Part shown: positions 6,891 to 60,412 of the stretch, piece by piece
Position numbering within the stretch: the first letter of the stretch is position 1
How the letters are laid out: every line of letters starts with the position of its first letter
NCBI GenBank assembly: GCA_964016885.1
Contig: OZ024742.1
Location: 200,012,001-200,076,000 of the forward strand
Direction: 5' to 3'
DNA: 64,000 bases
From: Eledone cirrhosa
Taxonomy: Eukaryota
The notes under the pieces: generated by a model
What the model was told of the DNA's origin: nothing
The model's input: the letters and a program-made list of their open reading frames with translations, nothing else
The model's database searches: none
Program-made: the position numbers and the translations under genes

Positions 6891-9800
6891 TCCTTGAATC
6901 TCAGTCATTGATGTTCGTTAACTGGAAAGTCCGTTGGATTGAATATCAAGCCACTACCTGCAGCCTCAGATATTCAGGACGTATCGGAGGGTTCTTGCTG
7001 TTCCAAGCAAGCATGCCTTTTGAAGCGTTCCAAAAAGCGTGAAGGGGCTGATTTTCTTTAACCATCCCTGGAAACTTTTGGAGATAGTCCCCAGTGCGCC
7101 TATGACAATCGGGATCACTTTGACTTCATGGCAGTTCCAAATCCTTTTCACCTCCCACTTTAGGTCCTGGTATCGGTTAATTTTCTCCCTCTCCTTCTCT
7201 TGCACTCTCGTGTCGAAAGGGCAGGCCACATCCACAATCAGGCACGATCTTTTTTCTTTGTCCACAACCACCAGGTCAGGTCTATTGTGTTCCAGTTTTT
7301 TGTCCGTCTGTATCCTAAAATCCCACAGCACCCTCACCTGATTGTTCTCCATCACCGCCTCTGGCCTATGCTCATACCATTTCTCAGAATGTGGTAGATT
7401 GTTTACTTTGCACAGGTGCCAGTGGATCACCCTGCCCATCACATCGTGTCTCCAGCCCTTATAGTGGGTCTGGGCTAGGTGTTTACACTCGGACACAATG
7501 TGAGCCACAGTCTCCTCTCTCTCTCCACAGATCCTGCACAGTGGGCTAGCCTCCTCCTTGTAGATATGGTGCTTCAACCACTTCGTTTTGAGGGCCTGCT
7601 CCTGCGCAGCCATTAGCATTCCTTCTGTAGCCTTTTTGAGGTCTCCTCTTCTCAACCAGTTCCATGTCTGTAGATCTCTAAATTCAGTTTTCTCAAAGAA
7701 GGTACTATGAAGGGATTTTCCCTTAAGGCTGCTCTTCCTCCTTGATGTTATTTCCTCCTTGGACATCCCCTGGCCTACTGTCCCCTCCTTCAGTACAGTT
7801 CTGAGCATTGGCTCCTTACTATAGGTCACGTATTTGTATAGGTTGTTTTTCTCCATCTGAACACAGTCCTCTATGCTGATAAGACCTCTTCCACCCTCAG
7901 ATCTCCTTAGGTAGAGTCTACCGACATCACTCCTCTTGTGGAACATGTTGTAGATAGTCAATAGCTTCCTAGTCTTCCTATCCATTTCTTTTTGTTCAGC
8001 AACATTCCATCTCAGAATTCCCGCACTGTACCTAATAATAGACACAGCTCGGGAATTTACTGCGCTTATGGCATTTCTGCTGTTCAGATGTGACTTCAAT
8101 ACGCTCCTTACTCTCCGAATGTATTCAGTTCTTAACAATTCCTTCATTTTTTTGTTCTTTATGCCATCAGCCTCCAGAACGCCCAAATACTTGTATCCTT
8201 CCTCAGAGTCAATTTCCTTTATCATCTCACCTGTTGGTATCTGGATCCCGTTACTTCTGCTCAACCTACCCCTCTTCATCACAATGACTCCACATTTACC
8301 AATACCAAACTGCATACATATATCACTGCTGAAAATACGGACAGTGTCAACAAGCACATCCAACTCCTTCTCACTTTTCCCGAAGAGCTTAAGATCGTCT
8401 ATGAAGAGGAGGTGATTGATGGTAAGCTCTCCCCTTCCCAACTTGTATCCTGCTCTCACTTTTCGCAGCATAATGGTCAAGGGCATCAGGGCAAGGACAA
8501 ACAACAGAGGGGACAGGCTATCTCCCTGGAAGATACCTCTCTTGATCTTCACGCTTCCCAAGGATACTCCAGTTGATGTCAACTCTGTCTCCCAGGACCC
8601 CATACTCCTGCCTAGCAACTGTCTGATGTTATCTGCCACCCTGAAGATCTCCAGGCTTTTGGTGATCCAGGAATGAGGCACCATGTCAAATGCCTTTCTG
8701 TAGTCTATCCATCCCATGGCAAGATCAGTGTGTCTCCTCCTGCAATTCCCCATTACCATCTTATCAATAAGCAACTGGTCCTTTGTACCACGTGACTTCT
8801 TTCGGCATCCTTTCTGTTCGTCCGGTAACAAGTTGTTTGTGTGGAGGTGATGGTAGATTTCCTCAGACACAATGCTCGTCAACAGTTTCCACATTACGGG
8901 CAGACATGTGATAGGTCTATAGTTGGTAACATCATTACCCTTGATTCGGTCTTTCATTATCAGAACTGTGGTACCTTTTGTCAACCACTCTGGCACCTCA
9001 CCCGACACCAAGCAGTCATTGAACATGGCCGTCAGCTTCGGGTGGAGGGATGTTAAATGTTTAATCCAATACCCCTGCACACCATGTGGGCCTGGTGATT
9101 TCCAGTTGGTTAGTTTTTTGGCTTGCCCCTTAAGAGTTTCAACTGTGATACTCAAATAAGTCTGTTGTTGTGCCTGCTCACCGATCTCCCTCTGTACTGT
9201 CTCAATCCACCCTGCCTGGGCATTGTGTCTAACATCCTGCTCCCATATTCCTATCCAGAATGTTTTAGTTTGTTCCGCCCCAGGGATCAAGTCGTTGCCT
9301 CTTTCTTTCCCCTCAAGCTGTCCAAACAGCATCTTCTGGTTGTTGTCGAACATGCGGTTCTGTTTATACTGACTGACTCTGTTCTCGTATCGCCTGATTT
9401 TTGCACTCTTTGCTACAATGCGTTGCTTCAATTCCTCTATGATAATATTTAGCTTTTTACTCCTAGTTTTGTATTTTATTTCCAGTCTATTTTTAGTGCC
9501 TATGTTTTTTAGTGTCCCATTCAGTAGTGACTCAAGCTTTCCTATGTCATTTCTCATTTCCCCGATTTGCCCACTCAGTCGCTTCTTCCACCACGGCTCT
9601 GCTCTTTCTTGTCTGTTGTTTCCTCTCGCTTTTATACCAAGTAGTTTCCTCACCGTATTTGCTGTTGCTTTGAGGATATTGTTGCACTGGTGAAGGCTCC
9701 TCGCCTCAAGGTATGGGATGACTTTGTTTACCTTAGCTGTTGTTTCTTTTAACTTTTTCCTGTCTACAAATCTTAGGTTCATAGGTCTCCCACTATCATT

Positions 9801-10780
9801 GTTCAATTCATCTACCACTAAATTTAGGATGTCAACCGAATCTTGTCCTAGCCCGTCAGCATTCATCTCCTCAGTGGCCGTATCTCTGTTCCAGGTATTA
9901 TTTATCTCAGTATTCAGATCATTGTCTGCTTCGGGTGGTTCCTCCGTTCTCAGGACCTCCTCATCTTCATTTCCCACCGGCTCGCTTGTCTGGCATACTA
10001 CACCCGCCATCTCCAAGCCATTCTCTCTGCTCAGTTCCTCCAGTTCCAGCTCGCTTATCCACCCATTAGTTCTTATTACCCGAGCCTGCCCGGCCAATTT
10101 TTGTTCATCTAATTTAAATAAACCAATCTCGTTCCAGATGTTATGCATCCGTCTCCTGTAGCCCCTCTCCTTGGGGTTACTTTTCAGGTAGCATTGCATA
10201 ACAGTTCTATTCAATTCTTTCGTCCAGTTGGTTCTGGCCCCTTTCCTTCTTCTTCTTCCTCCAACATCAGCAGTATTTGGTTGACAGTCAGGTTCCTGCT
10301 GCTGAGCCAGGGGGGACCTGTTGGGTGAGAGTCTGTCACATGACGTTCTAGTCTCCATTTCACCGTTATTCGAACTGTTTATGTTCGATATTTAAACACT
10401 CTTATCGAGGATTGGCGAATGTATAGTTACATAGCCATCTGTGGATCCGCCATCCCACTTGGCCCTTGTGTGGCATTATCGCCACGCTGTATACGAACAC
10501 ACATAAACAAACAAACACACAGGCAGAAAGGGCCCCAAAAATGAATAAGCATAAGTTTCATTGTAATGTAGTGTTCGAATGTCTGACTTAGTTTTTGTTT
10601 TTTAAGTTTTACTTTTTCCCCCCTCTTCTCTGTCCGTCCGCCTGCTTCTCTCTTCATTCTTATTTTCTTTACGTTTTGGGGGTTTCTTTTTTTGTTTTTG
10701 TTTTTCTCTGTTTGTTTTTCTCGTTTTTGCTGTTGTTGCTGTGCTGCTTTGGTTTTGTTGTTTGTTTTTTCTTTTTTCTT
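6871..10780 (-). mobile_element. Probably full-length R4/Dong-clade non-LTR retrotransposon in (TAA)n
   Basis: Single long ORF, a 3' UTR of about 75 nt ending GATTCAAGG(AAT)n, and about 420 nt of leader back to the upstream TAA run. Confidence 0.85.
6966..10358 (-). CDS. RT + CCHC + restriction-like endonuclease polyprotein (R4/Dong clade), 1130 aa, uninterrupted
   Basis: RT motifs: WKSPGPHG, NYRPITCL, WIDYRKAFD, GIFQGDSLSP, HLLFIDD, YKYLG. Zinc knuckle CRICGEREETVAHIVSEC, then RHD and the PD-(D/E)xK endonuclease NRPDLVV..IVDVACP..EKINRY. Confidence 0.95.
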   Translation of the reverse strand: METRTSCDRLSPNRSPLAQQQEPDCQPNTADVGGRRRRKGARTNWTKELNRTVMQCYLKSNPKERGYRRRMHNIWNEIGLFKLDEQKLAGQARVIRTNGWISELELEELSRENGLEMAGVVCQTSEPVGNEDEEVLRTEEPPEADNDLNTEINNTWNRDTATEEMNADGLGQDSVDILNLVVDELNNDSGRPMNLRFVDRKKLKETTAKVNKVIPYLEARSLHQCNNILKATANTVRKLLGIKARGNNRQERAEPWWKKRLSGQIGEMRNDIGKLESLLNGTLKNIGTKNRLEIKYKTRSKKLNIIIEELKQRIVAKSAKIRRYENRVSQYKQNRMFDNNQKMLFGQLEGKERGNDLIPGAEQTKTFWIGIWEQDVRHNAQAGWIETVQREIGEQAQQQTYLSITVETLKGQAKKLTNWKSPGPHGVQGYWIKHLTSLHPKLTAMFNDCLVSGEVPEWLTKGTTVLIMKDRIKGNDVTNYRPITCLPVMWKLLTSIVSEEIYHHLHTNNLLPDEQKGCRKKSRGTKDQLLIDKMVMGNCRRRHTDLAMGWIDYRKAFDMVPHSWITKSLEIFRVADNIRQLLGRSMGSWETELTSTGVSLGSVKIKRGIFQGDSLSPLLFVLALMPLTIMLRKVRAGYKLGRGELTINHLLFIDDLKLFGKSEKELDVLVDTVRIFSSDICMQFGIGKCGVIVMKRGRLSRSNGIQIPTGEMIKEIDSEEGYKYLGVLEADGIKNKKMKELLRTEYIRRVRSVLKSHLNSRNAISAVNSRAVSIIRYSAGILRWNVAEQKEMDRKTRKLLTIYNMFHKRSDVGRLYLRRSEGGRGLISIEDCVQMEKNNLYKYVTYSKEPMLRTVLKEGTVGQGMSKEEITSRRKSSLKGKSLHSTFFEKTEFRDLQTWNWLRRGDLKKATEGMLMAAQEQALKTKWLKHHIYKEEASPLCRICGEREETVAHIVSECKHLAQTHYKGWRHDVMGRVIHWHLCKVNNLPHSEKWYEHRPEAVMENNQVRVLWDFRIQTDKKLEHNRPDLVVVDKEKRSCLIVDVACPFDTRVQEKEREKINRYQDLKWEVKRIWNCHEVKVIPIVIGALGTISKSFQGWLKKISPFTLFGTLQKACLLGTARTLRYVLNI

Positions 10781-13024: not shown

Positions 13025-13732
13025 CGACAAAAATATTAATAATAATAATAACAACACCGTTGTTCTAAGGTCATCTCCGGTGACGGGAACACTTAGCTTA
13101 GCCGTAGGAACCCAGTTAAACATTCATAGGTGTGAGTTAAACAACAACAAAAACAACAAGGAAAGCCTTGCATGGGTTCAATATTGTTATTCCTTCCCAA
13201 ATAAAAACAGGAAAAAAATATGAAATGAACCGATCGTGTGATCAGACCAAGGAAACTATGTTTCCATCGGATTTTCCAATGCTGATACTATCTGCCGGTC
13301 GCATTTCCATTCAAAAGGAACCGGGATTTGAACACAACACATAGAGCCAAATCAAATATAGTAAACTATCCTCTCTGATTCTTTAAGAAATTCCGCCAAT
13401 TAACGTCCCCCTGAACTGGTAATATGTTTATCATCCCAGTAAGGATGAAAGGTAGAGTTGACCTCGGGGGAATTTGAACTTATAGAGCGAATGCCGAGAC
13501 ATTTTAATCTGAAGCTCTAACGATGCTGCCAATTCGTCACATTATACACGACGACGTAATTGACAGGCAACTCTGGAGGTCTTCAAACTGCAAATTTTTT
13601 GTCTCACGATTTGTCTTTAACACTTTAAACATAGCAGTTTAAGGTTGCATTATATGGTGTTGTGTCAATTCAGTTTGAATATGCTTCTGAACTGCTAAAG
13701 TGGTGGTGGATTTGCTAGGTGGGTGGTAAAAA

Positions 13733-13875
13733 TCAGCTAGACCATTCCCACCAGAGTACTCGATGCTTGGGGTTGTAGAATTGGTAATATGAAAAGATTC
13801 AAGACCCTGACCCGGCCGTTTCGACAGCTAGTTCGAAACAGCCGGAGCTCAGCCGTCGGGGTCCTGAATCTTTTC

Positions 13876-13880
<5 letters not shown>
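13733..13880. mobile_element. 'Family X' half-hammerhead fold-back element (subfamily b)
   Basis: CCAGAGTACTC..GTAATATGAAAAG..GACCC followed by an inverted arm ending in (TA)n. Related copies at 14427 and 17490. Confidence 0.65.
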
Positions 13881-14334: not shown

Positions 14335-14426
<92 letters not shown>

Positions 14427-14431
<5 letters not shown>

Positions 14432-14873
14432 ATATTCAGGACCCCGACGGCTGAGCTTCGGCCGTTTCGACAGCTAGATCTGACAGCTAGATCCGACAGC
14501 TAGTTCGAAACGGCAGGAGCTATGCGCGGGGACAAAGAAATAGTCGGGCTGGACACTCGATCGCGCGGTTAAACCACTGGGAGTGAAGGACCCCTACCCT
14601 TTGTCACGGCATTCTTCTAGGAAAAGGCAACACAGGGAACTGGGATAACTCCGATATAAAACCTGCGGCTGAGTAGTTACCGATGATGTTGATCTTTTCT
14701 TCTTTTCGGGTTATAGCTACTGTCGCTCAGAGCAGAGAATGGGATTGGCTCAGTGCACAGTCTTTCGTCACTTTTAAAAATATCTTCACACACAGTCATT
14801 GCACGATAGAATTAATTAATAATTATTAATCATGGTATATCGTGCAATGGCCATACTCGATAACGAGGGGAAA

Positions 14874-17480: not shown

Positions 17481-18152
17481 ATGTGTGCAGTAAAAACCTG
17501 TTAGACCATTATTCACCAGAGTACTTGATACTTGGGGTAGTAGAGTAAGTAATATAAAGGATTCGGGACCCTGACGGTTGAGCTCCTGCCGTTTAAACAG
17601 CTATATATATATTATATATTTATATATATATATATGAGCGTGGGTGTGTTGTTGTGCGCGTATGCACACGCAGACGCTTACAACCATATATATATATTTA
17701 TATATATTTATTTACATGCAATTAGAAAAGTAATAAGTGTTTGCAGGTTGTGAGGTAGTGTATTTAAGTATGTTATCACTAAAACCATTAAAAACATATT
17801 GTCTTGCTTGTTGGTGATAAACAATACATTATATCACACACACATGTGCAATAACATCTTATGTTTAAGAGGAACATATCTTAAGTATATGTGTTACATT
17901 ATTATCAGTTTTGAAGGAGCAACAATACGTACATACAAGCATACATACATGCATTCTTGCATACATGCTTGCATGCATATATACATACATAATACACACA
18001 CATATATAATTTGCAAATATATGTAAATATATATATATGTATATATATATATGTAAATATATGCAAATATATGTAAATATATATATATGTATATATGTAT
18101 GCATGTATATATGTATTATGTATACATGTATGTATGCATATATATGTATATG

Positions 18153-20395: not shown

Positions 20396-20548
20396 AGACT
20401 ATATATATATACACATCTATCTATCTATCTCTCCCGCTCTGCCTCTCTCCTTCTCTCTCTCTTTCTTTCTTTATATATATATATATATAAATATATATAT
20501 ATTTACACACACACACACGCATATAAATATATATATATATATATATAT

Positions 20549-20733
20549 AGGAAAATGTTTGACCCCGACGGCAGAGCTCAAGCCGTTTCGACGGCTATTT
20601 CTGGAGTCCAGAAACGGCTTGAGCTCTGCCGTCGAGGTCAAACATTTTCTTATTACCCACTCTACTACCCTAAGTATTGAGTACTCTGGTTCGTTATGAT
20701 CCATCTGATTCCTTACCACACATCCTTCGTTAT
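20549..20733 (+). mobile_element. Family X fold-back element
   Basis: Inverted arm, then GAAACGGCTTGAGCTCTGCCGTC..TTACCCACTCTACTACCCTAAG..CCTTCGTTA. Confidence 0.8.
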
Positions 20734-26902: not shown

Positions 26903-27625
26903 CATTAACAGAGAAAGCTTTAAGCTATACTCCGACTGGCTTCCATCTCACTCAACAAACATTAGGATATACCTTAGTATAATCCCAATTTTACGTTTGG
27001 GGTACTAACTATATGTATTTTGCGGATAGCCAGTTGTATTATTTTATACGAGACATAATTAAAATACATCTCCCTTTCCAAACATTTGTTTCATTATAAG
27101 ATTTCTACAGGTTGTCAAAAATGTGTCCAGGTTATGTAGAAGCCTGCACATAGTCCATAGGAATATATGCAGGTGGGCACTTATAAATCATCAGTGGATG
27201 CCCGTCAAACATCGATATAAAAAAAACTTTTTCTTACCGATATCCAATGCTTCTATCGATGGTCCCTCTCCGTATCAGAATGACCGCCAAATTTAAAATT
27301 CCAGCAGTCTCAGAATGAGAAATTTCACACTGTCATCAAGCGGAAAGGGGAGGTCATCGCGAAACATAATAAAATAATATGCACGCGGGTCAATTAATTT
27401 TTTCAATAATTTTAACCCTGCGTGTGAAGAACTCAATTAGATTTTTAAAAAATAAATATATGGATGTATTATTTATACACGCATATAGGTATTTTCTTAG
27501 GCTAAAAACAGAGATATGATACCAGAATAACAATCAATATTTCATAGTAATAATAAATACGGAAAGTTACACTTAAAAGGTATCTGGAAATATTCATCTC
27601 TGGCCAAATCAAGAATATATATATA

Positions 27626-27750
27626 GGAAAAAGTATGACCCTGACAGCAGAGCTCAAGCCATACGTTTTCCTATTTCCCACTCTACTACCCTAAGTATTG
27701 AGTACTCTGGTACGTTATGGTCCATCTGGTTCCTTACCACATTTCCTTTG

Positions 27751-27755
<5 letters not shown>
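27626..27755 (+). mobile_element. Family X fold-back element
   Basis: Short inverted arm plus the family 3' tail ending in (TA)n. Confidence 0.75.
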
Positions 27756-28425: not shown

Positions 28426-28482
<57 letters not shown>

Positions 28483-28485
<3 letters not shown>

Positions 28486-28675
28486 CGAAGGAAATGTGGT
28501 AAGGAACCAGGTGGACCATAACGCACCAAAGTACCTAAATGTTAGGGTAGTAGTGTGGGTAGTAGGAACGAGTAAGACTCCGACGGCTGAGCTCAAGCCG
28601 TTTAGACGGCTAATTCTGGACTGAATTAGCCGTCGAAACGGCTTGAGCTCAGCCGTCGGGGTCTTACTCGTTCCT
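28483..28675 (-). mobile_element. Family X fold-back element, cleanest copy
   Basis: Hairpin GACGGCTAATTC-tggact-GAATTAGCCGTC at the centre of ~55-bp inverted arms. Confidence 0.85.
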
Positions 28676-28689
28676 ATATATATATATAT

Positions 28690-29075
28690 ATGAGACGAAT
28701 AGCGCTTGATATAGTAGGAAAAGAGTTTTAAAGCTTCGGACACTAGTCCTTCATCAGATAATAGAATAGGAAATAAAAGGATAAATATATAAATAAAGGA
28801 TGAGAAGAATAAGGAAGGAAACAATATTTGGAGAAAAGGCAGGTATGTATTCAGTAAAGCATTAAAGAAAGCGGTTAACTTAAGAAGCACTGCGAAAGTT
28901 TGAAATATCAAATATATGCGTCCCAACGCAAATGACCATAATAAGAGATGATTTATTTTGAGTCGCCTATTGAGGCGACTAATTCCTCTCATTTGACTAA
29001 TACATTTGCCTCGTGTTAGCAATTTAAGAAGGAAATAAAATAAACATGACCACCCACCTAGCATTTTCACGGTTT
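28690..29075 (-). mobile_element. PLE-like terminal fragment with mutated HHR
   Basis: CTGATGA-a-GGAC-tagt-GTCC-GAAG at about 28728-28760. GAAA has become GAAG and there is no clear stem I. Confidence 0.4.
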
Positions 29076-40785: not shown

Positions 40786-40930
40786 ATAAAAACAAATAAC
40801 GAAACGAAATTAAATTTCGTTTCGCTTCTAACTCACTTTTGTATGACTGACGCTTTGTTTAAGCGTCAGTCATACAAAAGTGAGTTAGAAGCGAAACGAA
40901 ATTTAATTTCGTTTCGTTATTTGTTTTTAT
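40786..40930. repeat. Perfect ~70-bp-arm palindrome; fold-back end of the element carrying the 40619 HHR
   Basis: ..GACTGACGCTT-tgttt-AAGCGTCAGTC.. It contains an ACGAAAT..ATTTC motif resembling family Y. Confidence 0.9.
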
Positions 40931-40942
40931 ATATATATATAT

Positions 40943-41150
40943 AGGAAAATGTTTAACCCCGACGACAGAACTCAAGCCGTTTTTCGACGGTTATTTCTGG
41001 ACTGAAACAGCCGTCTGGACTGAAATAGCCCGTCCAGAAATAGCCGTCGAAACGGGTTGAGCTCTGCCGTCGGGGTTAAACATTTTCCTATTACCCACTC
41101 TACTACTGCGCTATGGTCCATCTGGTTCCTTACCACACCTCCTTCGTTAT
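40943..41150 (+). mobile_element. Family X fold-back with stuttered stem II
   Basis: TCTGGACTGAAA(C/T)AGCC is repeated at the inversion point. Confidence 0.8.
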
Positions 41151-41322
41151 ATATATACAAGGGATAACAAAATATTGTTATAGGTAATCCAGTTAGAAGT
41201 TGTGAATACTTCTTATTGTGGATATTTTTAGCGTACGGCGTTGTTTGACTCAACAAGAGGTTTACGTAGATGGCGAGTGTACGATTTCACTTGTATTCCT
41301 ATGTAAGTTTATCTTGGAATAA

Positions 41323-46385: not shown

Positions 46386-49300
46386 TTACAGACACATACT
46401 CAGAGAAGGCCCATTCATTCGGGCCATACTTGCTTCTCTCACCCATCTTTCAACAAAATGCTGGGAAGAGAGCACTTCCCTCTCTACCCTGATTTTCCTT
46501 TTCAAATGAAATTTGAAAAAGTTAATCAGGGCATCACCGAAGAGGTAAGTGCTCGTCTTCAGCCCTTTCAAACGTGTCCACCATACTATCTCTTTCGCCA
46601 TGGCCACCAGACAGATAAAAACTGCCTGCCCTTCCAGGCTAAAGGAAGGGGGCGGGGCAATCCTCACGATGGACTCAGCTGATAGCTGGATCCGTCCTAC
46701 ACGTGACAGCAGGTGTTCGACATAAACCCACAAGTCAGCAATGCTCGGACACTGGACGAGTGCGTGCAGGACGGTTTCGTCGCCCTGCGCGCATCTCGGA
46801 CATGCCCGGCTGACGGCACCTCCATGCCTGTAGAGTTTATCCCGAACTGGCAAAGCTCCTCGGTAGCACTGCCAGGCCAGGGATTTCTGGAAGTTGTCCA
46901 TAGGCCCCGGCCCGAAAGTCCTTCCGAAGAGATTGGCTAGTTGATTTTCGTCGACGCCTAGAGTTTCTCCAAGTACGTCGTCGCTCTTCCCCTCCACTAA
47001 TCCCCTATAGAACGCCAAGGTGGAGTTTCCACCGATCACATTGCCCGATTGGTCGAGGGCTGTAAGCGCCTGAAGACATTCCAGTCTCCAAGCGCTCCCT
47101 CTCGGTCTTCGCTTGACCCAGGACTGCAGCTCCGTCAAGGAGACGAGCTGGGGAAAAACGTATCTTGCAAACGGCGACCACACCTGATCACCGTCGAGGA
47201 AGAGGTGGAGATGTCGTAGCCTGAGCGCGTGTCTGCGCATCATCAGCCACGGCATGCCCAGCCCTCCACGTAGCGGGTGTTGACAGCAGATGGACCGCCT
47301 GACCATCGGAGCGCGTCCCTTCCACAAGAAGCGAAAGAGCAAACGCTCCAGCGCAGTCAGGCGGAGCTTAGGACAAGGTACGACGGTCAGGCGGTAGTAG
47401 ATGACGGATGCGATGTACGCATTTGCCACCTCCGCTCGACCTTTCCGCTTCCTCTCGGCCCATTTCTGGGTGAGAGAAGCCACCCTGCTCGTCACCTCGT
47501 CCCAGTTTTTGTCCGTCTGGAGGTCTGGACCGAACCAGACCCCTAGCAATTTAACCGGTCCGTCCGTCCAGCGCCCGACGACGCTGTTGGACGGCATGGA
47601 CCTGCCTCTCCAGGTGCCGAGCTTCAGGCCCACTGACTTTTCCTGGTTGATCATTGCTCCTGTCACCGCTTCGTATTCTCTTAGTGTAGTGCCGATCGCC
47701 TCGATGTGTTTGGCGTTCGACACCACTACGGTGACATCGTCGGCATATGCTGACACGGATCTTCCGCATCCTAGTTCGCGCGGGACCCCTCTCAACGTCT
47801 CCAGTTTGTGCAGTAATGGCTCGAGAGTCAATACGTACAATAGGGACGAGAGGGGACATCCTTGGCGGACCGAGCGCATGATGTTGAACGGTTCCGAAAG
47901 GTGACCGTTCACTCTCACTACAGAGCAGATGTCGCTGTGCATGGCAGCGATCCAGCCTCTGAAGACGGGCCCAAAGCCAGCCGCCCTCAGGACTGCCGTT
48001 AGGTAACGATGGTCGACCCTATCGAAGGCTTTCGACTGATCTAAATTGATCAAAGACCCACCCGTGCCAGGTTCCCTAGCTACCCTCTCTACGATGTATC
48101 GCATGAGGTGGAGGTTGTCGTGGATGGATCTGTCGGGAATGGCGCATGTCTGTGCCTCTCCCACCAGACCACCAACGACAAGCGCCAACCTCTGTGCTAG
48201 CACCTTGGCCAAAATCTTGAACTCTGTGTTTAGCAGAGTTATGGGCCTAAAATTATCTATGTTATCCCCCTTGTTCGGATCCTTTCTCAGCAGCGCCACC
48301 GCTCCTCGGCTCACAGAGCTGGGAATTCTCCCGTTCTGTTGCCAGTTGCAGTAGACGTCCGCCAAGAGGCCTCCGAACAAGTTTGGCATTTGTACGTAAA
48401 GTTCATAGGGCAGACCATCCAAACCAGGCGATTTACCCCTTGTGCAACTAGTCATTGCATCCCGTACTTCAGCGGTTGTTATCGGCTTTTCGCAACACTC
48501 CGCCTCAGTGGCCGAAAGCCGCGGCAGTCCGTCGAGGTAGACACTAAAGTCCATCCCTCGATCCGGCCCGCCACTGCCCCCGAACAGTTGAGCGAAGTGT
48601 CGCTGAAAAGCTTCACACATTTGCCCGGGATCGAGTAGCATGCGCCCGTCGTGGTCCACCAAAGACCGGATCGTGGCTTTGTTGCCACGACGCGCCTCCG
48701 CCACTCGGGCCCATTGAACGGCTTTCGTCCCCTCGTGTCTGAGAGCACGCACCCTAGCTCTGACAACGCAGCCTTCGTGCTTTGCATTGAAGAATTGGTC
48801 AAGGGCCAATTTCGCCGCAAGTACGTCGGTCGCGATGCCTTTGCTAAGCGCCTCATCTAATTTTCTAACTAATTCTCCCTCTGCTCTATTTTTCTCTATT
48901 GCTAAAGTCTTACTAAACCTAATGGACTCTATTCTAATTGCTCTTTTCAGAGCAAACCACCACTTGTTGTTGACGATGGCCCCCGTCAACGCCCGCTTAA
49001 CTAGTTCGCTAATCCGGTCTCTGTAGGCCTTGCGCGCTGGTAAGGACGCGTTTAGCTTCCAGTAGCCGGGTCCTCGTCTATGAAGCCTATCTAAGTCAAG
49101 CACACAGATCACGAATGTGTGGTCCGTGTAGCTGACTATCTTGAATTGTGGACAGCCTATGCTAGACCTATCTATTTCCCTACAAAATACTCTATCTAGA
49201 TATGATCTGGATGACCCTATGCGATTTGTCCAAGTCCACATTGGTACATTCGGGAAATCCATTCGGTACCTGTCAGACAGTTCAAAACGTCTGAGCAGGT

Positions 49301-49799
49301 TGGTGAGACTCTTGCACCCTCCGTCCCTATCCACTAATCCCACACAATCCCAGCGTGCATCTAAGATCCCGTTCCAGTCGCCCACTAACACTAAAGAGCG
49401 GGATGTTCCAAGAAAGGTCTCCAGACGCCGGAAGAAATCAGGCCGCCCTGCTCCTGTCGGGGCATAGACGGCCACTAACCTGAAAGCTTGCCCGTCTCCG
49501 CTGGTCACGTCCAGCACCACCAACTTACCTTCTGGGTCCAGGAAGATGGCCCGTATGGCAAGATCCAAACCTCTCCGAAAAAGCATAGCAACTCCGCCCC
49601 CCGATCCCGGACGGCTGGGAGATGCGTACACATCGTAGCCGCCGAAGATCGGTGCGAAAGCCTGTGCTTCGGAGATTCTGGTCTCGCTGATGGCCACTAC
49701 ATCTATGTTTAGTGACCTGAGGTCGTTGAGCAGGTGGCCCTGCTTCCATGACGACCCCAAGCCACGCGCATTTATGCTGCCTATTCTGAGTGAGGTCAT
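46386..49799 (-). CDS. LINE ORF2: APE endonuclease + RT + zf-RVT (Tx1/L1 clade), 1137 aa
   Basis: APE motifs: SINARGL, ISET, VYAP, GDWN, SYLDR, TDH. Also WKLN. RT motifs: KSPGLDG, FRPITLLN, DQSKAFD, QGCPLS, AYADD, LLGV. C-terminal CPRC..ETVLHALVQC. Confidence 0.95.
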   Translation of the reverse strand: MTSLRIGSINARGLGSSWKQGHLLNDLRSLNIDVVAISETRISEAQAFAPIFGGYDVYASPSRPGSGGGVAMLFRRGLDLAIRAIFLDPEGKLVVLDVTSGDGQAFRLVAVYAPTGAGRPDFFRRLETFLGTSRSLVLVGDWNGILDARWDCVGLVDRDGGCKSLTNLLRRFELSDRYRMDFPNVPMWTWTNRIGSSRSYLDRVFCREIDRSSIGCPQFKIVSYTDHTFVICVLDLDRLHRRGPGYWKLNASLPARKAYRDRISELVKRALTGAIVNNKWWFALKRAIRIESIRFSKTLAIEKNRAEGELVRKLDEALSKGIATDVLAAKLALDQFFNAKHEGCVVRARVRALRHEGTKAVQWARVAEARRGNKATIRSLVDHDGRMLLDPGQMCEAFQRHFAQLFGGSGGPDRGMDFSVYLDGLPRLSATEAECCEKPITTAEVRDAMTSCTRGKSPGLDGLPYELYVQMPNLFGGLLADVYCNWQQNGRIPSSVSRGAVALLRKDPNKGDNIDNFRPITLLNTEFKILAKVLAQRLALVVGGLVGEAQTCAIPDRSIHDNLHLMRYIVERVAREPGTGGSLINLDQSKAFDRVDHRYLTAVLRAAGFGPVFRGWIAAMHSDICSVVRVNGHLSEPFNIMRSVRQGCPLSSLLYVLTLEPLLHKLETLRGVPRELGCGRSVSAYADDVTVVVSNAKHIEAIGTTLREYEAVTGAMINQEKSVGLKLGTWRGRSMPSNSVVGRWTDGPVKLLGVWFGPDLQTDKNWDEVTSRVASLTQKWAERKRKGRAEVANAYIASVIYYRLTVVPCPKLRLTALERLLFRFLWKGRAPMVRRSICCQHPLRGGLGMPWLMMRRHALRLRHLHLFLDGDQVWSPFARYVFPQLVSLTELQSWVKRRPRGSAWRLECLQALTALDQSGNVIGGNSTLAFYRGLVEGKSDDVLGETLGVDENQLANLFGRTFGPGPMDNFQKSLAWQCYRGALPVRDKLYRHGGAVSRACPRCAQGDETVLHALVQCPSIADLWVYVEHLLSRVGRIQLSAESIVRIAPPPSFSLEGQAVFICLVAMAKEIVWWTRLKGLKTSTYLFGDALINFFKFHLKRKIRVEREVLSSQHFVERWVREASMARMNGPSLSMCL

Positions 49800-49833
49800 G
49801 TTGAAAAGGAGTGGAAAAGATGGGAAAGACCAC

Positions 49834-50357
49834 TTACCTTACTTCTCGTAGGGGAAGGACGGCTTTTCCATCCTTTTCACTGCTTGTGGCCTCCTCAGGA
49901 AGGATGTCCTTATAAATCCTCCTGGAGAGTGCTTGTCGGAAGTCTCCGACGTCTTTGGGGAATTTTTGTTTTAGTGTCATGTACGTTTTCTGTGTGATGC
50001 GAGTGATTTGTATGTGTGGAGGTGGTGTGAATTTTGGGGTTGTTGTGTAGTCTTTTTCTGTGATGCTGGTGTTGTGTTGGATGTAGTGTAATAATTGCTT
50101 GTTGTTCAAATTTAATGCTGTGTAGTGTGTATCGTTTTGGTTGTTTTGTTTTGTTTGCGTTTGTTGTGGGTTTGTTTCTGTTTCGCATTTTGGTGACTTT
50201 TGTGGTGTAGGTGATGGTGGTGCTGGGGATAATGATGGTGATGGTGTTGGTGTTTGGGTTGATGGGGTTGGTGATGCCGGTGTGGATGGTGGCATATCTG
50301 TCCTAACTTTTTTGTTTCTTAGTTTATTTGTTTCCCTCTGTATTTTGTTTTTGTATT
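49834..50357 (-). CDS. Probable C-terminal part of Tx1 ORF1 (start lost)
   Basis: Open frame ending 35 nt upstream of the ORF2 ATG. It is P/T/S-rich, and its apparent start codon lies in the adjacent Dong fragment. Confidence 0.55.
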
Positions 50358-50549
50358 TCGGCCCCTTCACGCTTTTTGGAACGCTTCAAAAGGCATGCTT
50401 GCTTGGAACAGCAAGAACCCTCCGATACGTCCTGAATATCTGAGGCTGCAGGTAGTGGCTTGATATTCAATCCAACGGACTTTCCAGTTAACCAACATCA
50501 ATGACTGAGATTCAAGGAATAACAACAATAATAATAATAATAATAATAA
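50358..50549 (+). mobile_element. R4/Dong extreme 3' fragment
   Basis: GPFTLFGTLQKACLLGTARTLRYVLNI* followed by the 3' UTR and an (AAT)n tail. Confidence 0.93.
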
Positions 50550-53500
50550 AGATGCATAACATCTGGAACGAGATTGGTCTATTTAAATTAGATGAACAAA
50601 AATTGGCCGGGCAGGCTCGGGTAATAAGAACTAATGGGTGGATAAGCGAGCTGGAACTGGAGGAACTGAGCAGAGAGATTAGCTTAAAGATGGAGAGTGG
50701 AGTATGCCAGGCAAACGAGCCAGTGGGAAATGAAGGTGAAGAGGTCGAGAGAACGGAGGAACCACCCGAAGCAGACAATGATCTAAATGCTGAGATAAAT
50801 AATACCTGGAACAGAGATACGGCCACTGAGGAGATGAATGCTGACGGGCTAGGACAAGATTTGGTTGATATCCTAAACTTAGTGGTAGATGAATTGAACA
50901 ATGATAGTGGGAGACCTATGAACCTAAGATTTGTAGACAGGAAAAAGTTAAAAGAAACAACAGCTAAGGTAAACAAAGTCATCCCATACCTTGAGGCGAG
51001 GAGCCTTCACCAGTGCAACAATATCCTCAAAGCAACAGCAAATACGGTGAGGAAACTACTTGGTATAAAAGCGAGAGGAAACAACAGACAAGAAAGAGCA
51101 GAGCCTTGGTGGAAGAAACGACTGAGTGGTCAAATCAGGGAAATGAGAAATGACATTGGAAAGCTTGAGTCCCTACTGAATGGGACACTAAAAAACATAG
51201 ACACTAAAAATAGACTGGAAATAAAGTACAAAACTAGGAGGAAAAAGCTAAATATTATCATAGAGGAACTGAAGCAACGCATTGTAGCAAAGAGTGCAAA
51301 AATCAGGCGATACGAGAACAGAGTCAGTCAGTATAGACAGAACCGCATGTTCGACAACAACCAGAAGATGCTGTTTGGACGCTTGAAGGGAAAGAAAGAG
51401 GCAACGACTTGATCCCTGAGGCGGAACAAACTAAAACATTCTGGAGAGGAATATGGGAGCAGGATGTTAAACATAATGACCAGGCAGTGTGGATTGAGAC
51501 AGTACAGAAGGAGATTAGTGAACAGGCACACCAACAAACTGATTTGAGTATCACAGTTGAAACTCTTAAGGGGCAGGCCAAAAAACTAACCAACTGGAAA
51601 TAACCAGGCCCAGATGGTGTGCAGGGGTATTGGATTAAAAATATAACATCCCTCCACCCGAAACTGACAACCATGTTCAATGACTGCTTGATGTCAGGTG
51701 AGGTACCAGAGTGGTTGACAAAAGGTACCACAGTTCTGATAATGATAGACCGAATCAAGCTTAATGATGTTACCAACTATAGACCTATCACATGCCTGTC
51801 CGTAATGTGGAAACTGTTGACAAACATTATGTCTGAGGAAATCTACCATCACCTCCACACAAACAACTTGTTACCGGACGAACAGAAAGGATGCCGAAAG
51901 AAGTCACGTGGTACAAAGGACCAGTTACTTATTGATAAGATGGTAATGAGGAATTGCAAGAGGAGACACACTGGTCTTGCCATGGGACGGATAGACTACA
52001 AAAAATCATTTGACATGGTGCCTCATTCTTGGATCACCAAAAGCCTGGAGATCTTCAAGGTGGCAGATAACATCAGACAGTTGTTGGGCAAAAGTATGAA
52101 GTCCTGGGAAACAGAGTTAACATCAACTGGAGAATCCTTGGGAAGCGTGAAGATCAAGAGAGGTATCTTCCAGGGAGATAGTCTGTCCCCTCTGTTGTTT
52201 GTCCTTGCCCTGATGCCCCTGACAAGTGTACTGCGAAAAGTGAGAGCAGGATACAGGTTTGGAAAGGGAGGGCTTACCATCAATCACCTCCTCTTCATGG
52301 ACGATCTTAAGCTCTTCGGGAAGAGTGAGAAGAAGTTGGATGTGCTTGTTGACTGTCCGTATTTTCACCAATGATATATGTATGCAATTTGGTATTAGTA
52401 AGTGTGGAGTCATTGTGATGAAGAGGGGTAAGTTGAGCAGAATTAACGGAATACAGGTGAGATGATAAAGGAAATTGACTCTGAAGAAGGATACAAGTAT
52501 TTGGGCGTTCTGGAGGCTGATGACATCAAGAACAAAACAATGAAAGAATTGATAAGAACTGAATACATTCGGAGAATAAGGAGCGTATTAAAGGCACATC
52601 TGAACAGTGAACAGTAGGAATGCCATAAGTGCAGTAAATTCCCGAGCTGTGTCTATTATTAGGTACAGTGCGGGAATTCTGAGATGGAATGTTGCTGAAC
52701 AAAAAGAAATGGATAGGAAGACTAGGAAGCTATTGACTATCTACAACATGTTCCACAAGAGGAGTGATGTCGATAGACTCTACTTAAGGAGATCTGAAGG
52801 TGGAAGAGGTCTTATCAGCATAGAGGACTGTGTTCAGATGGAGAAAAACAACCTACACAAATACGTGACTGGTAGTAAGGAGCCAATGCTCAGAACTGTA
52901 CTGAAGGAGGGGACAATAGGCCAGGGGATGTCCAAGGAGGAAATAACATCAAGGAGAAAGAGCAGCCTTCAGGAAAAATCCCTTCATAGTACCTTCTTTG
53001 AGAAAACTAAATTTAGAGATCCACAGACATGGAACTGGTTGAAAAGAGAAGACCTTAAAAAGGCTACAGAAGGAATGTTAATGGCTGCGCAGGAGTAGGC
53101 CCTCAAAACGAAGTGGTTGAAACACCATATCTACAAGGAGGAGGCTAGCCCACTGTGCAGGATCTGTGGAGAGAGAGAGGAGACTGTGGCTCACATTGTA
53201 TCCGAGTGTAAACCCCTAGCCCAGACTCACTATAAGGGCTGGAGACACGATGTGATGGGCAGGGTGATCCACTGGCACCTATGCAAAGTAAACAATTTAC
53301 CACATTCTGAGAAATGGTATGAGCATAAGCCAGAGGCGGTGATAGAAAACGATCAGGTGAAGGTGCTGTGGGATTTTAGGATACAGACGGACAAGAAACT
53401 GGAACACAATAGACTTGACCTGGTGGTGGTGGACAAAGAAAAAAGATCCTGCCTGATTGTGGATGTGGCCTGCCCATTCGACACGAGAGTGCAAGAGAAG

Positions 53501-53828
53501 GAGAGGGAGAAAATTAACCGATACCAGGACTTAAAGTGGGAGGTAAAAAGGATTTGGAACTGCCATGAAGTCAAAGTGATCCCGATTGTCATAGGCGCAT
53601 TAGGGACTATCTCAAAAAGTTTCCAGGGATGGTTAAAGAAAATTGGCCCCTTCACGCTTTTTGGAACGCTTCAAAAGGCATGCTTGCTGGGAACAGCAAG
53701 AACCCTCCGATACGTTCTGAATATCTGAGGCTGCAGGTAGTGGCTTGATATTCATTTCAACAAACTTTCCAGTTAACTAACATCAATGACTGAGACTCAA
53801 AGAGTAATAACAACAATAATAATAATAA
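50550..53828 (+). pseudogene. 5'-truncated, disrupted R4/Dong copy
   Basis: Collinear with the 1130-aa ORF from MHNIW onward. It has a frameshift near 51390, a TAA stop at 51601, deletions near 52352 and 52455, a TGAACAG duplication near 52601 and a TAG stop at 53096. The RT motif reads FMDD. Confidence 0.93.
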
Positions 53829-54879: not shown

Positions 54880-57200
54880 TGATGGTATTTATCGAGAATT
54901 GTAAAATTCTTTTTAGGGATTTAGTCCATAGTTTGCAAGTTAAATGGAGCGTTATACCATGTTACGTTTCTTTTATGGTTTCTAATTGGTTTCCTCTTAT
55001 TATATTGGGTATGTATAGAAGTTTGAGGGTAGATATTGTTATCAGATGATACTATAATGTTGTGATTGTTATTATGGGTGTGATTGTTATTATGTTGTGA
55101 TTGTTATTATGGGTGTGATTGTTATTATGGGTGTGATTGTTATTATGTTGTGATTGTTATTATGGGTGTGATTGTTATTATGGGTGTGATTGTTATTATG
55201 TTGTGATTGTTATTATGGGTGTGATTGTTATTATGGGTGTGAACTAATTGTTTAGTAGATTTTTGAATTGTATTAGTTTTTAATTTATTGCTTTTTGTTT
55301 GATTTATAGAGGATATTGTGAGTTTTATTAATGGAGCCTTATTGATAGGACCTGGAATTTTGGTATTATTCTTGTTATTTACAGTAGTTCGGATATGTTT
55401 CTGTGGTTTTGGGGATCGTAAGGATGTAGTTTGGTTAGGTTGAGAGATCATTGAAATAGGTAATATATCATTAGGTTTATTGTGAGAATTAATATATAAG
55501 ATGTTATTATTAACTGCTTTTTTAAGATTAATGGAGTTAGGTGTTTTCGTATGGTTTGTAGTAATATTATTAGGTAGGTTATAGAAATATTCAGAAACGT
55601 TAGGATTGATGATTTTTAGAGAATGTGTGTCATTCATGTTAATGCGGGTATTAGGAGTAATGGTAGGATCTGGGTTTTTCGGTGTTTCATTGCTGGCACT
55701 AACTCTTTGGTTTTTTTATGGTGTTTGTTGCTTATGCTCGGTTGTATGCTGGAGGTATTCATGGTGTTAGGTATGTAAAATATTTTATCCTTGTAGCCAC
55801 TTCTAGTTAAAGCCTCATTATAATAAGTGCATTTTTATAGAATATTTCTTCATTAGATGATAATTTAGATAATCTGAGTGAGATATTGTACACTAGAATT
55901 TTTAGTATGGAACTAGTGTGGTTAGATTGTGAGTGTATATAATGCAGGTTTTGGTTTGGTTTGTGGTGGGGTTGGTAAGTGCCTGTTGATAGATCTAACG
56001 TGATGTCGAGGAAATTGACCATTTTAGTGCTATTTTCAAAAGTAATGGTAAGATTATAGTAATCTTTGAGGAATTTCCTAATATTTTTTTATTTCTCTCA
56101 ATTGCTGAGAGACTAAGATTGTTAGATAAAAGAAGACAGCCATCGCGATATAGACCACCTTTGAGGTGGGGAAAAGAGGAATTTAAATTATATAGGAGAA
56201 AGAGGCCCACAAGGTCCGTAACCTGGGCGGAATCCATCGACCCCATTGTGATATCATATAAATCACTATATGTATTTCTAGTCCAATACTCGCTTTGGAA
56301 GTCCAGTAGTGTTTTCTGGCATGTGTGATGATATTAATTTCATTCATAGTTATGTCCGATCTATTTTGGGCGAAAATTAATGCTTTGTTCAGTAGTATGA
56401 GGGATATTGATGAATAATATGCATCAATGTCGAATTGGAGAAATGAAGCCGAGGGCTTATTTTTGATGTCGGCGAACCAATTGATAACTTGGGAAGTGTT
56501 TTCCCACAGCGGTAGTTTTACGTTTCCTTAGTTGTGGGATAACTTTATCAAGAATCTTCTTGCTTATTACTCCGATGTCCGACTTAGATGGGTATATGAA
56601 TCTAATCGATGGGTTCGAGTTGAAGTCAGATTTATGATCTTTCAGATTAAAGTGTGGATTTTTTGGTGTGAAAGGCTCGGTTCTATCTTCGATGTTGAGT
56701 TCTTTTACTATGGTGTGTGATTTATTGTTTATAGAGGTAAGTGCTGTACTACTGCTTTTCTTATAGTTCTTCCTTAGTTCTTTATAAATGAACTGGTTAT
56801 ATTTATCAATGTTCATATGGTATAAGTTACCAGTTTTGTCAGAGTGGACATGAACTTTACTAGAGTTTTTTAGTTTAAATAGGATAGAGTCCAGTTCTTT
56901 TTGAAAGTTTGATTTGTGTTTCCTAAATTTGATGTGTTTAATCATATTGAGTAAATCTTTTTCAACATTTTCAAGTATAGAATTGTGAAGAGGGTTTTTA
57001 TATGTGCGAAAGTCATAAAAGTTTTTCTTCTCATCTCTTTTGGTTTTGTTGTCGAAGTGGTATGCCCGCCAACGAACTCTTCTAATAAATTGGTTAGTTT
57101 TTTGTATAAGAAGAAGGAATTCATCTTTAAAGGGAATTAGTACGTTTTTCAACGAAGTTCCTAAGTATTGTTTTTCCATTGCAATACGGATGTTAGACAA
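54880..57200 (-). pseudogene. Decayed Penelope-like element RT (Naiad-type), endonuclease end missing
   Basis: Across frameshifted ORFs: SLKNVLIP, FIRRVRWRAYHF, SDKTGNLY, LKDHK..PSIRFIYPSKSDIG, FLQFDIDAYYSSI, MGSMDSAQVTDLVG, GLYRDG, VNFLDITLDL, YIHSQSNH. Confidence 0.85.
55055..55241. repeat. 18-bp-type minisatellite (GGTGTGATTGTTATTATG) in the PLE linker
   Basis: About 10 tandem units. Confidence 0.9.
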
Positions 57201-57553
57201 GATTAAGACCTCAACTAAATATATTAATTAATGAAAAAATCAATGAAAAAGGAGCAGAGTATACCAATTAAAGGTAGGATCTAAACCGTATGAAGAACTC
57301 AATGTAATCCGTATGTAGAAGATGTCGTGAAGCAAAGTTTAAAATACAACATTTTCAACGATATAATTCATTGGATAGAGGGTCAAAAATACAAATAGTA
57401 AAACAATGAAATTAAACAAAAAACGGTTAATTCATACGGTTAATTCATTATTTTACGATCGTTTCTGGGGGGTAGTTCCCCGTATGTACATTCTATTATT
57501 GATTTATGTAAAATATATTACCATAGTAAGAAAATAGTGTATCTATGTGTATA

Positions 57554-60237: not shown

Positions 60238-60269
60238 CTATCTATCTATCTATCTATACATACATAGAT

Positions 60270-60412
60270 AAGAAAAAGTATGACCCCGACGGCAGAGCTC
60301 AAGCCGTTTCGACGGGGTCATACTTTTTACTATTACCCACTCTACTAGCCTAAGTATTGAGTACTCTGGTGCGTTATGGTCCATCTGGTTCCTTACCACA
60401 ACTCCTTCGTTC
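60270..60412 (+). mobile_element. Family X fold-back element
   Basis: AAAAAGTATGACCCCG...CGGGGTCATACTTTT followed by the family tail. Confidence 0.78.

Follow-up and report, generated by a model that had tools for sequence, protein, structure and literature searches.

The window analysed here, a 64,000-nucleotide stretch of the Eledone cirrhosa genome, contains eight related pieces at positions 13733, 14427, 17490, 20549, 27626, 28483, 40943 and 60270, all of them where a preliminary description had placed them. The focal copy (28483–28675) is a palindrome with 53-bp arms and a unique part of ~80 bp, and is flanked by (TA)n runs that form its target on the left (28430–28482) and on the right (28676–28691). 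We number the element from the A of the TYAGT motif in the hammerhead loop II, which is +1. The long or tailed arm lies on the minus strand at 28483–28622, spans +1 to +140 and matches the parent unit described below over its first 140 nt; the short or untailed arm (28623–28675, plus strand) spans +7 to +59 and is inverted with respect to the long arm. The stretch +62 to +140 (28483–28561, minus strand) lies between two 3′ end sites, is present in the long arm only and corresponds to the tail of Penelope-like elements (PLEs) as presented in the cited passages of PMC11167929 and PMC8557442.

The short arm carries the true 3′ strand of stem II (28624–28634, plus strand), whose 5′ partner is missing from the short element, and then the GAAA core, a stem III with a palindromic loop and the 3′ strand of stem I (28635–28663, plus strand). 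The predicted hammerhead cut site is after C28657. The motif composed of GAAA, stem III, GUC and GGGGTC, as previously described, was found in the better-preserved pieces, and the CTGANGA half reported as missing is indeed in none of the eight. No short X copy, whether in the window or among the arms of the random sample introduced below, has both halves of the hammerhead core, and an Rfam scan of the window gave no match.

The other copies differ in completeness. Two belong to the X2 subfamily: one with a long and a short arm and an internal deletion (13722–13879, minus strand), and a short arm with a stuttered junction (14424–14515, minus strand). An older solo tailed arm starts at about +11 (17490–17603, minus strand). 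The X1 copies, all on the plus strand, are at 20547–20732 (short arm from +3; long arm from +1, internally deleted), 27623–27754 (short arm from +24, long arm only from +55), 40941–41154 (both arms to +1/+2, with a stuttered insert at the junction) and 60268–60411 (short arm from +14, long arm from +41). The local stutters that had been noted near 14470 and 41000 are present. Just to the left of the 40943 copy is a separate, near-perfect palindrome of ~130 bp (40793–40925). The window further contains LINE ORFs, two of them on the minus strand, at 6966–10391 (RVT_1, 1141 aa) and 46386–49838 (EN-RT-zf, 1150 aa), and one on the plus strand (50492–53728) from an RT element that is fragmented.

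The palindrome centre and the size of the family

The preliminary description saw a 12-bp hairpin where stem II should be, and regarded it as a widely shared feature of the element. The sequence in question (28605–28634, on neither strand in particular) marks where two head-to-head arms join and is no element feature: it is the innermost part of the palindrome with 53-bp arms, the parent has no such hairpin, and among the eight copies its full form occurs only at 28483 and, within the stutter, at 40943. A junction was mistaken for stem II. In the focal copy the 6-nt spacer (28617–28622) is long-arm +1 to +6, and the centre varies from copy to copy, both in 30 close loci and in 50 centres among those listed from the 9,048 exact palindrome centres found genome-wide (control, 0). 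A 6-nt spacer like that of the focal copy was counted by eye in 6 of these 50 listed centres.

The family is far larger than chance would give: a first look at the 3.0-Gb assembly gave 3,283 candidate members. In a random sample of 100 stretches of 10 kb each, taken at fixed spacing and totalling 1 Mb, there were 70 arms, which by extrapolation gives an estimated ~2×10^5 arms, or roughly 10^5 insertions, in (TA)n. The assembled contigs have a depth step at +1 and at +141; depth is no measure of copy number here and was not used as evidence. Solo copies can extend upstream of the TYAGT motif (L121, L124), and at L040, at L047 and among the matches of a looser parent pattern (below), an X arm is in some cases joined straight to the hammerhead region of another PLE-like family.

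The parent element and its predicted hammerhead

The parent was traced by looking for sequence that runs on past the tail in place of (TA)n. It is a 3,542-bp unit in a tandem array, and the short element is its +1 to +141. The unit has an ATG at +233, an ORF of about 717–719 aa and a 3′ UTR of 1.15 kb. The ORF includes the motifs RLRWR (RWR, not RWK) and HSDKTG (DKT), an RDDG RT core and, near the C terminus and in the same ORF as the RT, a GIY-YIG (VIY..YIG); the CxCX5C linker (CNCPDRSIC), CxxC (CNLC) and CxH (CKH), the latter two near the conserved E and N, were identified by eye, and no CCHH was seen. Atlas neighbours of the protein belong to HTH_animal, GIY-YIG and RVT_1 clusters; a Pfam scan of the parent and a sequence comparison with the PDB gave no match. 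The (TA)n preference of the Hydra clade is evident in 51 of 61 arm ends, which are followed by alternating A/T. The parent is thus a Penelope-like element and, judged by these motifs, probably one of Hydra-clade character, agreeing with that clade in the properties compared except for a canonical hammerhead. Identity with Naiad was rejected, the parent having no N-terminal GIY-YIG, CxC domain or DKA. Near-identical 3,542-bp units with open ORFs form a tandem array at L166/L167 (G000:C1, 91.47–91.49 Mb), in front of which a ~55-bp piece of the ORF is repeated in tandem over a long stretch. A second Hydra-type PLE family is present in the window at 55143–57227 (minus strand), with a broken, frameshifted ORF that is 44% identical to the parent over 222 aa.

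In long copies, ACCCC is followed upstream of +1 by UUGANAA, the 5′ strand of stem II and a loop of ~33 nt. With these, stems I–III are all present (stem III has 5 bp), and the parent is predicted to carry a type I hammerhead with the variant core UUGANAA, in which U3 pairs with A8. The short element had been interpreted as the 3′ half of a PLE hammerhead, and this holds, as the parent supplies the other half upstream. The forecast for the upstream half was partly borne out: the stem I strand ACCCC is found in long copies, but CTGANGA is not, the core being UUGANAA, located ~51 nt upstream and not adjoining the hairpin position. GACCCC-CTGANGA had been expected directly 5′ of the hairpin, and searches of 3 Gb for GACYCC-CTGANGA-GACRGC, or for CTGANGA before the hairpin, gave 0 matches. 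A looser parent pattern gave 78 matches, of which the 45 inspected were mostly junction filler, chance juxtapositions or other repeats and included no parent; that pattern allowed a spacer of 8–36 nt, too short for the real loop II, and the canonical core was covered by the later G8 and X2/X3 searches. Canonical CTGANGA hammerhead-like cores belonging to other repeat families occur in the window at 28757 (minus), 58967 (plus), 21174 (plus) and 40655 (minus), and the 58967 type has 5 matches in the random sample.

The full hammerhead-like stretch has 5,320 matches genome-wide (control, 0), among which N7 of the core is found as all four bases. In 100 full copies listed out of the 5,320, U3 is present in 92 and C3 opposite A8, a mismatch, in 8. 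Searches for G8 forms (78 matches) and for the X2/X3 pattern (298 matches) yielded 46 distinct copies, consisting of 22 with U3-A8, 15 with U3·G8, 7 with C3-G8 and 2 others. For 27 hand-picked copies, 86% of cells are paired in the type I fold vs 32–53% in slid controls, and there are compensatory changes at three stem II pairs as well as the U3-A8/C3-G8 exchange; pair 10.2–11.2 is unpaired in 23 of the 27. Three helices thus surround a YUGANRA/GAAA/UH core, as in type I hammerheads, and the parent family, where U3-A8 is dominant, departs from the canonical CUGANGA. RNAalifold chose another fold for the alignment and did not recover the hammerhead, and the minimum-energy fold is the hammerhead in only 3 of 5 single copies. 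U3-A8 is already known in PLE hammerheads of Schistosoma, as cited passages of PMC4209133 report; the cited passages of PMC3088659 do not mention it.

The arms were also examined for a mark of cleavage. Among the matches listed, and counted by eye, ~11 of 100 truncated arms start at the predicted cut site +42 (3 unambiguously) vs ~8 at +39, and a clear breakpoint peak at the ribozyme cut site was not seen. The C3·A8-mismatch subfamily (L182, L183; the 8 of 100 full copies listed) has nonetheless amplified, which suggests that cleavage is dispensable.

Arm ends, pairing and the origin of the palindrome

The arms have a fixed 5′ edge inside loop II. Among the 70 random arms, 39 start at −4 to +9, 3 at −13 to −5 and none at −60 to −14; 7 start further upstream and 21 downstream of +9. 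Inversion breakpoints are therefore clustered, as had been surmised, and short arms outnumber arms reading through +1 by 63 to 7, or ~9:1. Exact walking of 149 arms, search-selected loci included, gave peaks at +1, +2 and +7, with 6 arms reaching −3 or beyond; a minority of arms reach 5–15 nt past +1. All seven direct-tandem junctions identified restart at +1/+2, their upstream pieces ending at 232–959. X1 and X2 have the same edge, and their loop II sequences differ save for TYAGT. In a check for an extra G derived from a cap, 9 of the 23 arms that end at +1 had a G before them, several of these being accounted for by the other arm. The coincidence of arm starts, tandem restarts and the X1/X2 edge points to a physical RNA end at +1, of which a transcription start is the simplest and a likely cause. 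The TYAGT motif resembles an Initiator. For Penelope, a cited passage of PMC2377424 places an internal Inr/DPE promoter within the pLTR. A candidate TATA box at about −29 was dropped, as the TATA-like stretch of X1 belongs to stem II and X2 lacks it. One locus (L171:6837–8000) has the classic PLE layout in miniature, with an inverted short arm, a direct piece from +4 to +959 and a restart covering +2 to +141, suggesting that the RT jumped templates on reaching the 5′ end of the RNA.

The 3′ ends fall into two classes: 29 of the 70 random arms are short (~+61), 32 are long (~+141) and 9 end elsewhere. One long arm is joined to one short arm in 19 of 22 random pairs, and outside the query-selected set there are 91 long–short pairs vs 3 long–long and 4 short–short, in an incidental collection to which loci retrieved with other patterns, and a few duplicates, contribute. 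Long inverted insertions with full hammerheads likewise have one tailed and one untailed end, in seven of seven cases examined by eye (L186/L187, L189/L190, L194/L195, L196/L197, L205, L247 and L019). At subfamily sites the two arms are discordant in 3.2% (48 pairs), close to the background of 3.5%, vs 41.8% under independent draws. Since the arms agree at subfamily variants, both come from one source; their concordance could also reflect gene conversion, or a succession of single dominant sources. Where arms of the query-selected set disagreed, this was put down to ascertainment and not taken as evidence of two templates. At 35 junctions, 12 are blunt, 12 overlap by microhomology and 11 have inserts, a mix as expected of end-joining, and templated inserts would account for the stutters at 14470 and 41000.

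We consider it probable that the head-to-head pair of 61- and 141-base PLE arms, cut in loop II, was produced by twin priming on one RNA, followed by run-off and end-joining. Because the arms are concordant and yet have independent 5′ ends, two primings on one RNA are favoured. The main rival is that a single cDNA begun at +141 runs off the RNA 5′ end, primes itself by microhomology or untemplated bases, and is cut or stopped at +61, and self-priming has already been proposed for palindromic PLE junctions in a cited part of PMC3846280. Such a cDNA would have concordant arms, could use the microhomology seen at 12 of the 35 junctions and, in TCAGT-type parents, would meet a natural 4-bp mini-hairpin, from which the 6-nt spacer of the focal copy would result. 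However, the 6-nt class makes up only 6 of the 50 centres listed, and solo arms end at +61/63 too. Moreover, in 85 pairs (a count that leaves out the query-selected set and pairs with alignment overlaps of at least 10), the untailed arm extends beyond the tailed arm on the 5′ side by at least 3 nt in 39, and by at least 10 nt in 24 of these, while the tailed arm extends further in 23 and the two are within 2 nt in 23. The corresponding numbers for 28 young pairs are 8, 7 and 13, and 671 matches genome-wide combine an almost complete untailed arm with a tailed arm that is deeply truncated. Since the untailed arm is so often the one further 5′, fold-back of a single cDNA, which the preliminary description had also invoked, is impossible there without a later deletion; later deletions at the palindrome centre could blur which arm reached further. 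We judge self-priming at the template end to be unlikely.

A doubtful variant keeps twin priming but supposes that, on read-through RNAs, the RT stalls at +1 in loop II or the RNA is processed there. Folding predicts weak apical hairpins close to +1 in this loop, at which the RT might stall in place of reaching an RNA end: in X1 the predicted hairpins are AU-rich and overlap TYAGT, X1 arms of the random set are on average trimmed further than X2 arms, and no TATA box is conserved. Against this, the sharp +1/+2 edge stays with the motif even between subfamilies with different predicted apical hairpins, stronger helices had already been traversed by the RT, and the direct-tandem jumps all restart at +1/+2. 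Still less probable, in our estimate, is that the short palindrome propagates itself as a non-autonomous, SINE- or retrozyme-like element, or is templated by antisense RNA. The excess of short arms over read-through arms would agree with this, and antisense self-priming is among the proposals in the cited part of PMC3846280, but the centre is different in almost every copy, hence the palindrome is not copied as a unit; matching long parents exist for the short subfamilies, and the copies are not tandem arrays of complete hammerheads. Finally, snap-back of the cDNA on a 12-bp stem II after GACCCC-CTGANGA, as first suggested, is barely credible and is refuted by the test set for it, for although breakpoints cluster only slightly 5′ of where the 3′ strand of the true stem II lies, they fall in loop II, the predicted parent has no match, the real one has no hairpin, and the ~33-nt loop closed by the real stem II is kept between the arms in none of 100 long-centre matches listed (of 516; by eye).

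Under twin priming, the steps might be as follows. Transcription would start at +1 in loop II, splitting the ribozyme across the RNA ends. The RT would prime twice on one RNA from opposite-strand nicks at a (TA)n site, the two 3′ ends (+61 and +141) being its initiation sites by analogy to PAc in vitro, and one RNP, possibly a dimer, would make both arms. Both cDNAs would likely run off the RNA 5′ end and be united by host end-joining, leaving a variable centre, and long copies would require read-through into a tandem unit. The short class would be abundant because only the 5′ copy in a non-tandem source has ORF-side sequence behind the start sites. An uncleaved or religated template, as previously assumed, would not be needed, for an RNA starting in loop II would have half a ribozyme at its 5′ end. 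According to the cited passages of PMC11167929, PAc nicks and extends both strands and does not need hammerhead cleavage, and its RT has two internal start sites that bound the tail and requires the sequence downstream of them. The more specific scheme, in which transcription starts in the element's own U3-A8 loop II, leaving half a ribozyme at the 5′ end and a whole one only at the 3′ end, and a dimeric RT primes at +61 and +141 from opposite nicks, is offered tentatively, and we would not be surprised to see some part of it fail. If it is true, a loop II start with dimeric priming would explain at a single stroke the inverted pLTR and one-sided tail of PLE insertions generally, and the genome would have been flooded with ~10^5 palindromic, strong-stop-like inserts.

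The tail, the inverted pLTR and U3-A8 are known parts of PLE biology; the fixed edge inside the predicted ribozyme and the countable evidence for twin priming appear to be new. Cited passages of PMC3846280, PMC8557442 and PMC11167929 state as open the origin of head-to-head inverted PLE ends with a one-sided tail, and the role of the hammerhead. In the literature searched, of limited coverage, we found no description of a start inside loop II or of such a short class. The family offers ~10^5 tiny products in which the template end and both 3′ ends are fixed, along with intact tandem parents, so that self-priming and twin priming can be weighed against each other by genomic counts and by in vitro tests with an RNA of ~250 nt. 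In addition, thousands of PLE hammerheads escape descriptor searches in which CUGANGA and a short loop II are demanded.

Comparison with known systems

Twin priming is the known source of LINE-1 5′ inversions, in which two cDNAs are made from opposite nicks and joined by microhomology. The two LINE-1 cDNAs copy different parts of the RNA, whereas here both copy the same 61 bases, with a palindrome as the result.

The closest relatives are the Hydra-clade PLEs, as characterized in the cited portions of Craig et al. (2021, PMC8557442). They have the same single ORF with an RT followed by a C-terminal GIY-YIG, and likewise have RW(K/R), DKT, the CxCX5C linker, CxxC and CxH, and no CCHH. They also share (TA)n targets, a type I hammerhead near the unit end, an inverted 5′ copy and a one-sided tail. 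Units catalogued there are mostly <3 kb, in contrast to the 3.5-kb parent with its 1.15-kb 3′ UTR, and tails are 30–40 nt vs ~80 nt here. The Hydra hammerheads in the cited rows of File S2 have CUGANGA, a loop II of 3–10 nt and a short stem III, while the one predicted here combines UUGANAA with a loop II of ~33 nt and a stem III of 5 bp.

PAc (Poseidon of Anolis; Frangieh et al. 2024, PMC11167929) shares with the present family AT-rich targets and two 3′ ends that bound a tail downstream of the hammerhead. It belongs to another clade and its ORF starts at stem II, as opposed to the ATG at +233, and the cited passages do not describe a fixed 5′ edge inside the ribozyme or head-to-head joining. 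In Schistosoma, the Cercyon PLE hammerheads reported in the cited part of Cervera and de la Peña (2014, PMC4209133) have the same core covariation, a long helix II, a palindromic loop III and opposite-strand pairs 100–700 bp apart; they are minimal motifs without helix III, whereas here stems I–III are accompanied by a very long loop II in which insertions begin. Penelope of Adineta vaga, as covered by the cited part of Arkhipova et al. (2013, PMC3846280), is alike in its head-to-head pLTRs, junction palindrome, one-sided tail and Inr-like pLTR sequence. Its palindromes were interpreted, from few copies, as self-priming, possibly on antisense RNA, while the statistics here favour two primings.

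Non-LTR retrozymes, according to the cited portions of PMC7229834 and 10.64898/2026.07.22.740005, are similarly short, non-coding, pLTR-related repeats with a type I hammerhead sequence. They are direct tandem repeats of complete ribozymes, and identity with them was rejected, the copies here being inverted pairs of half-ribozymes. Such inverted pairs look like dead-end products.
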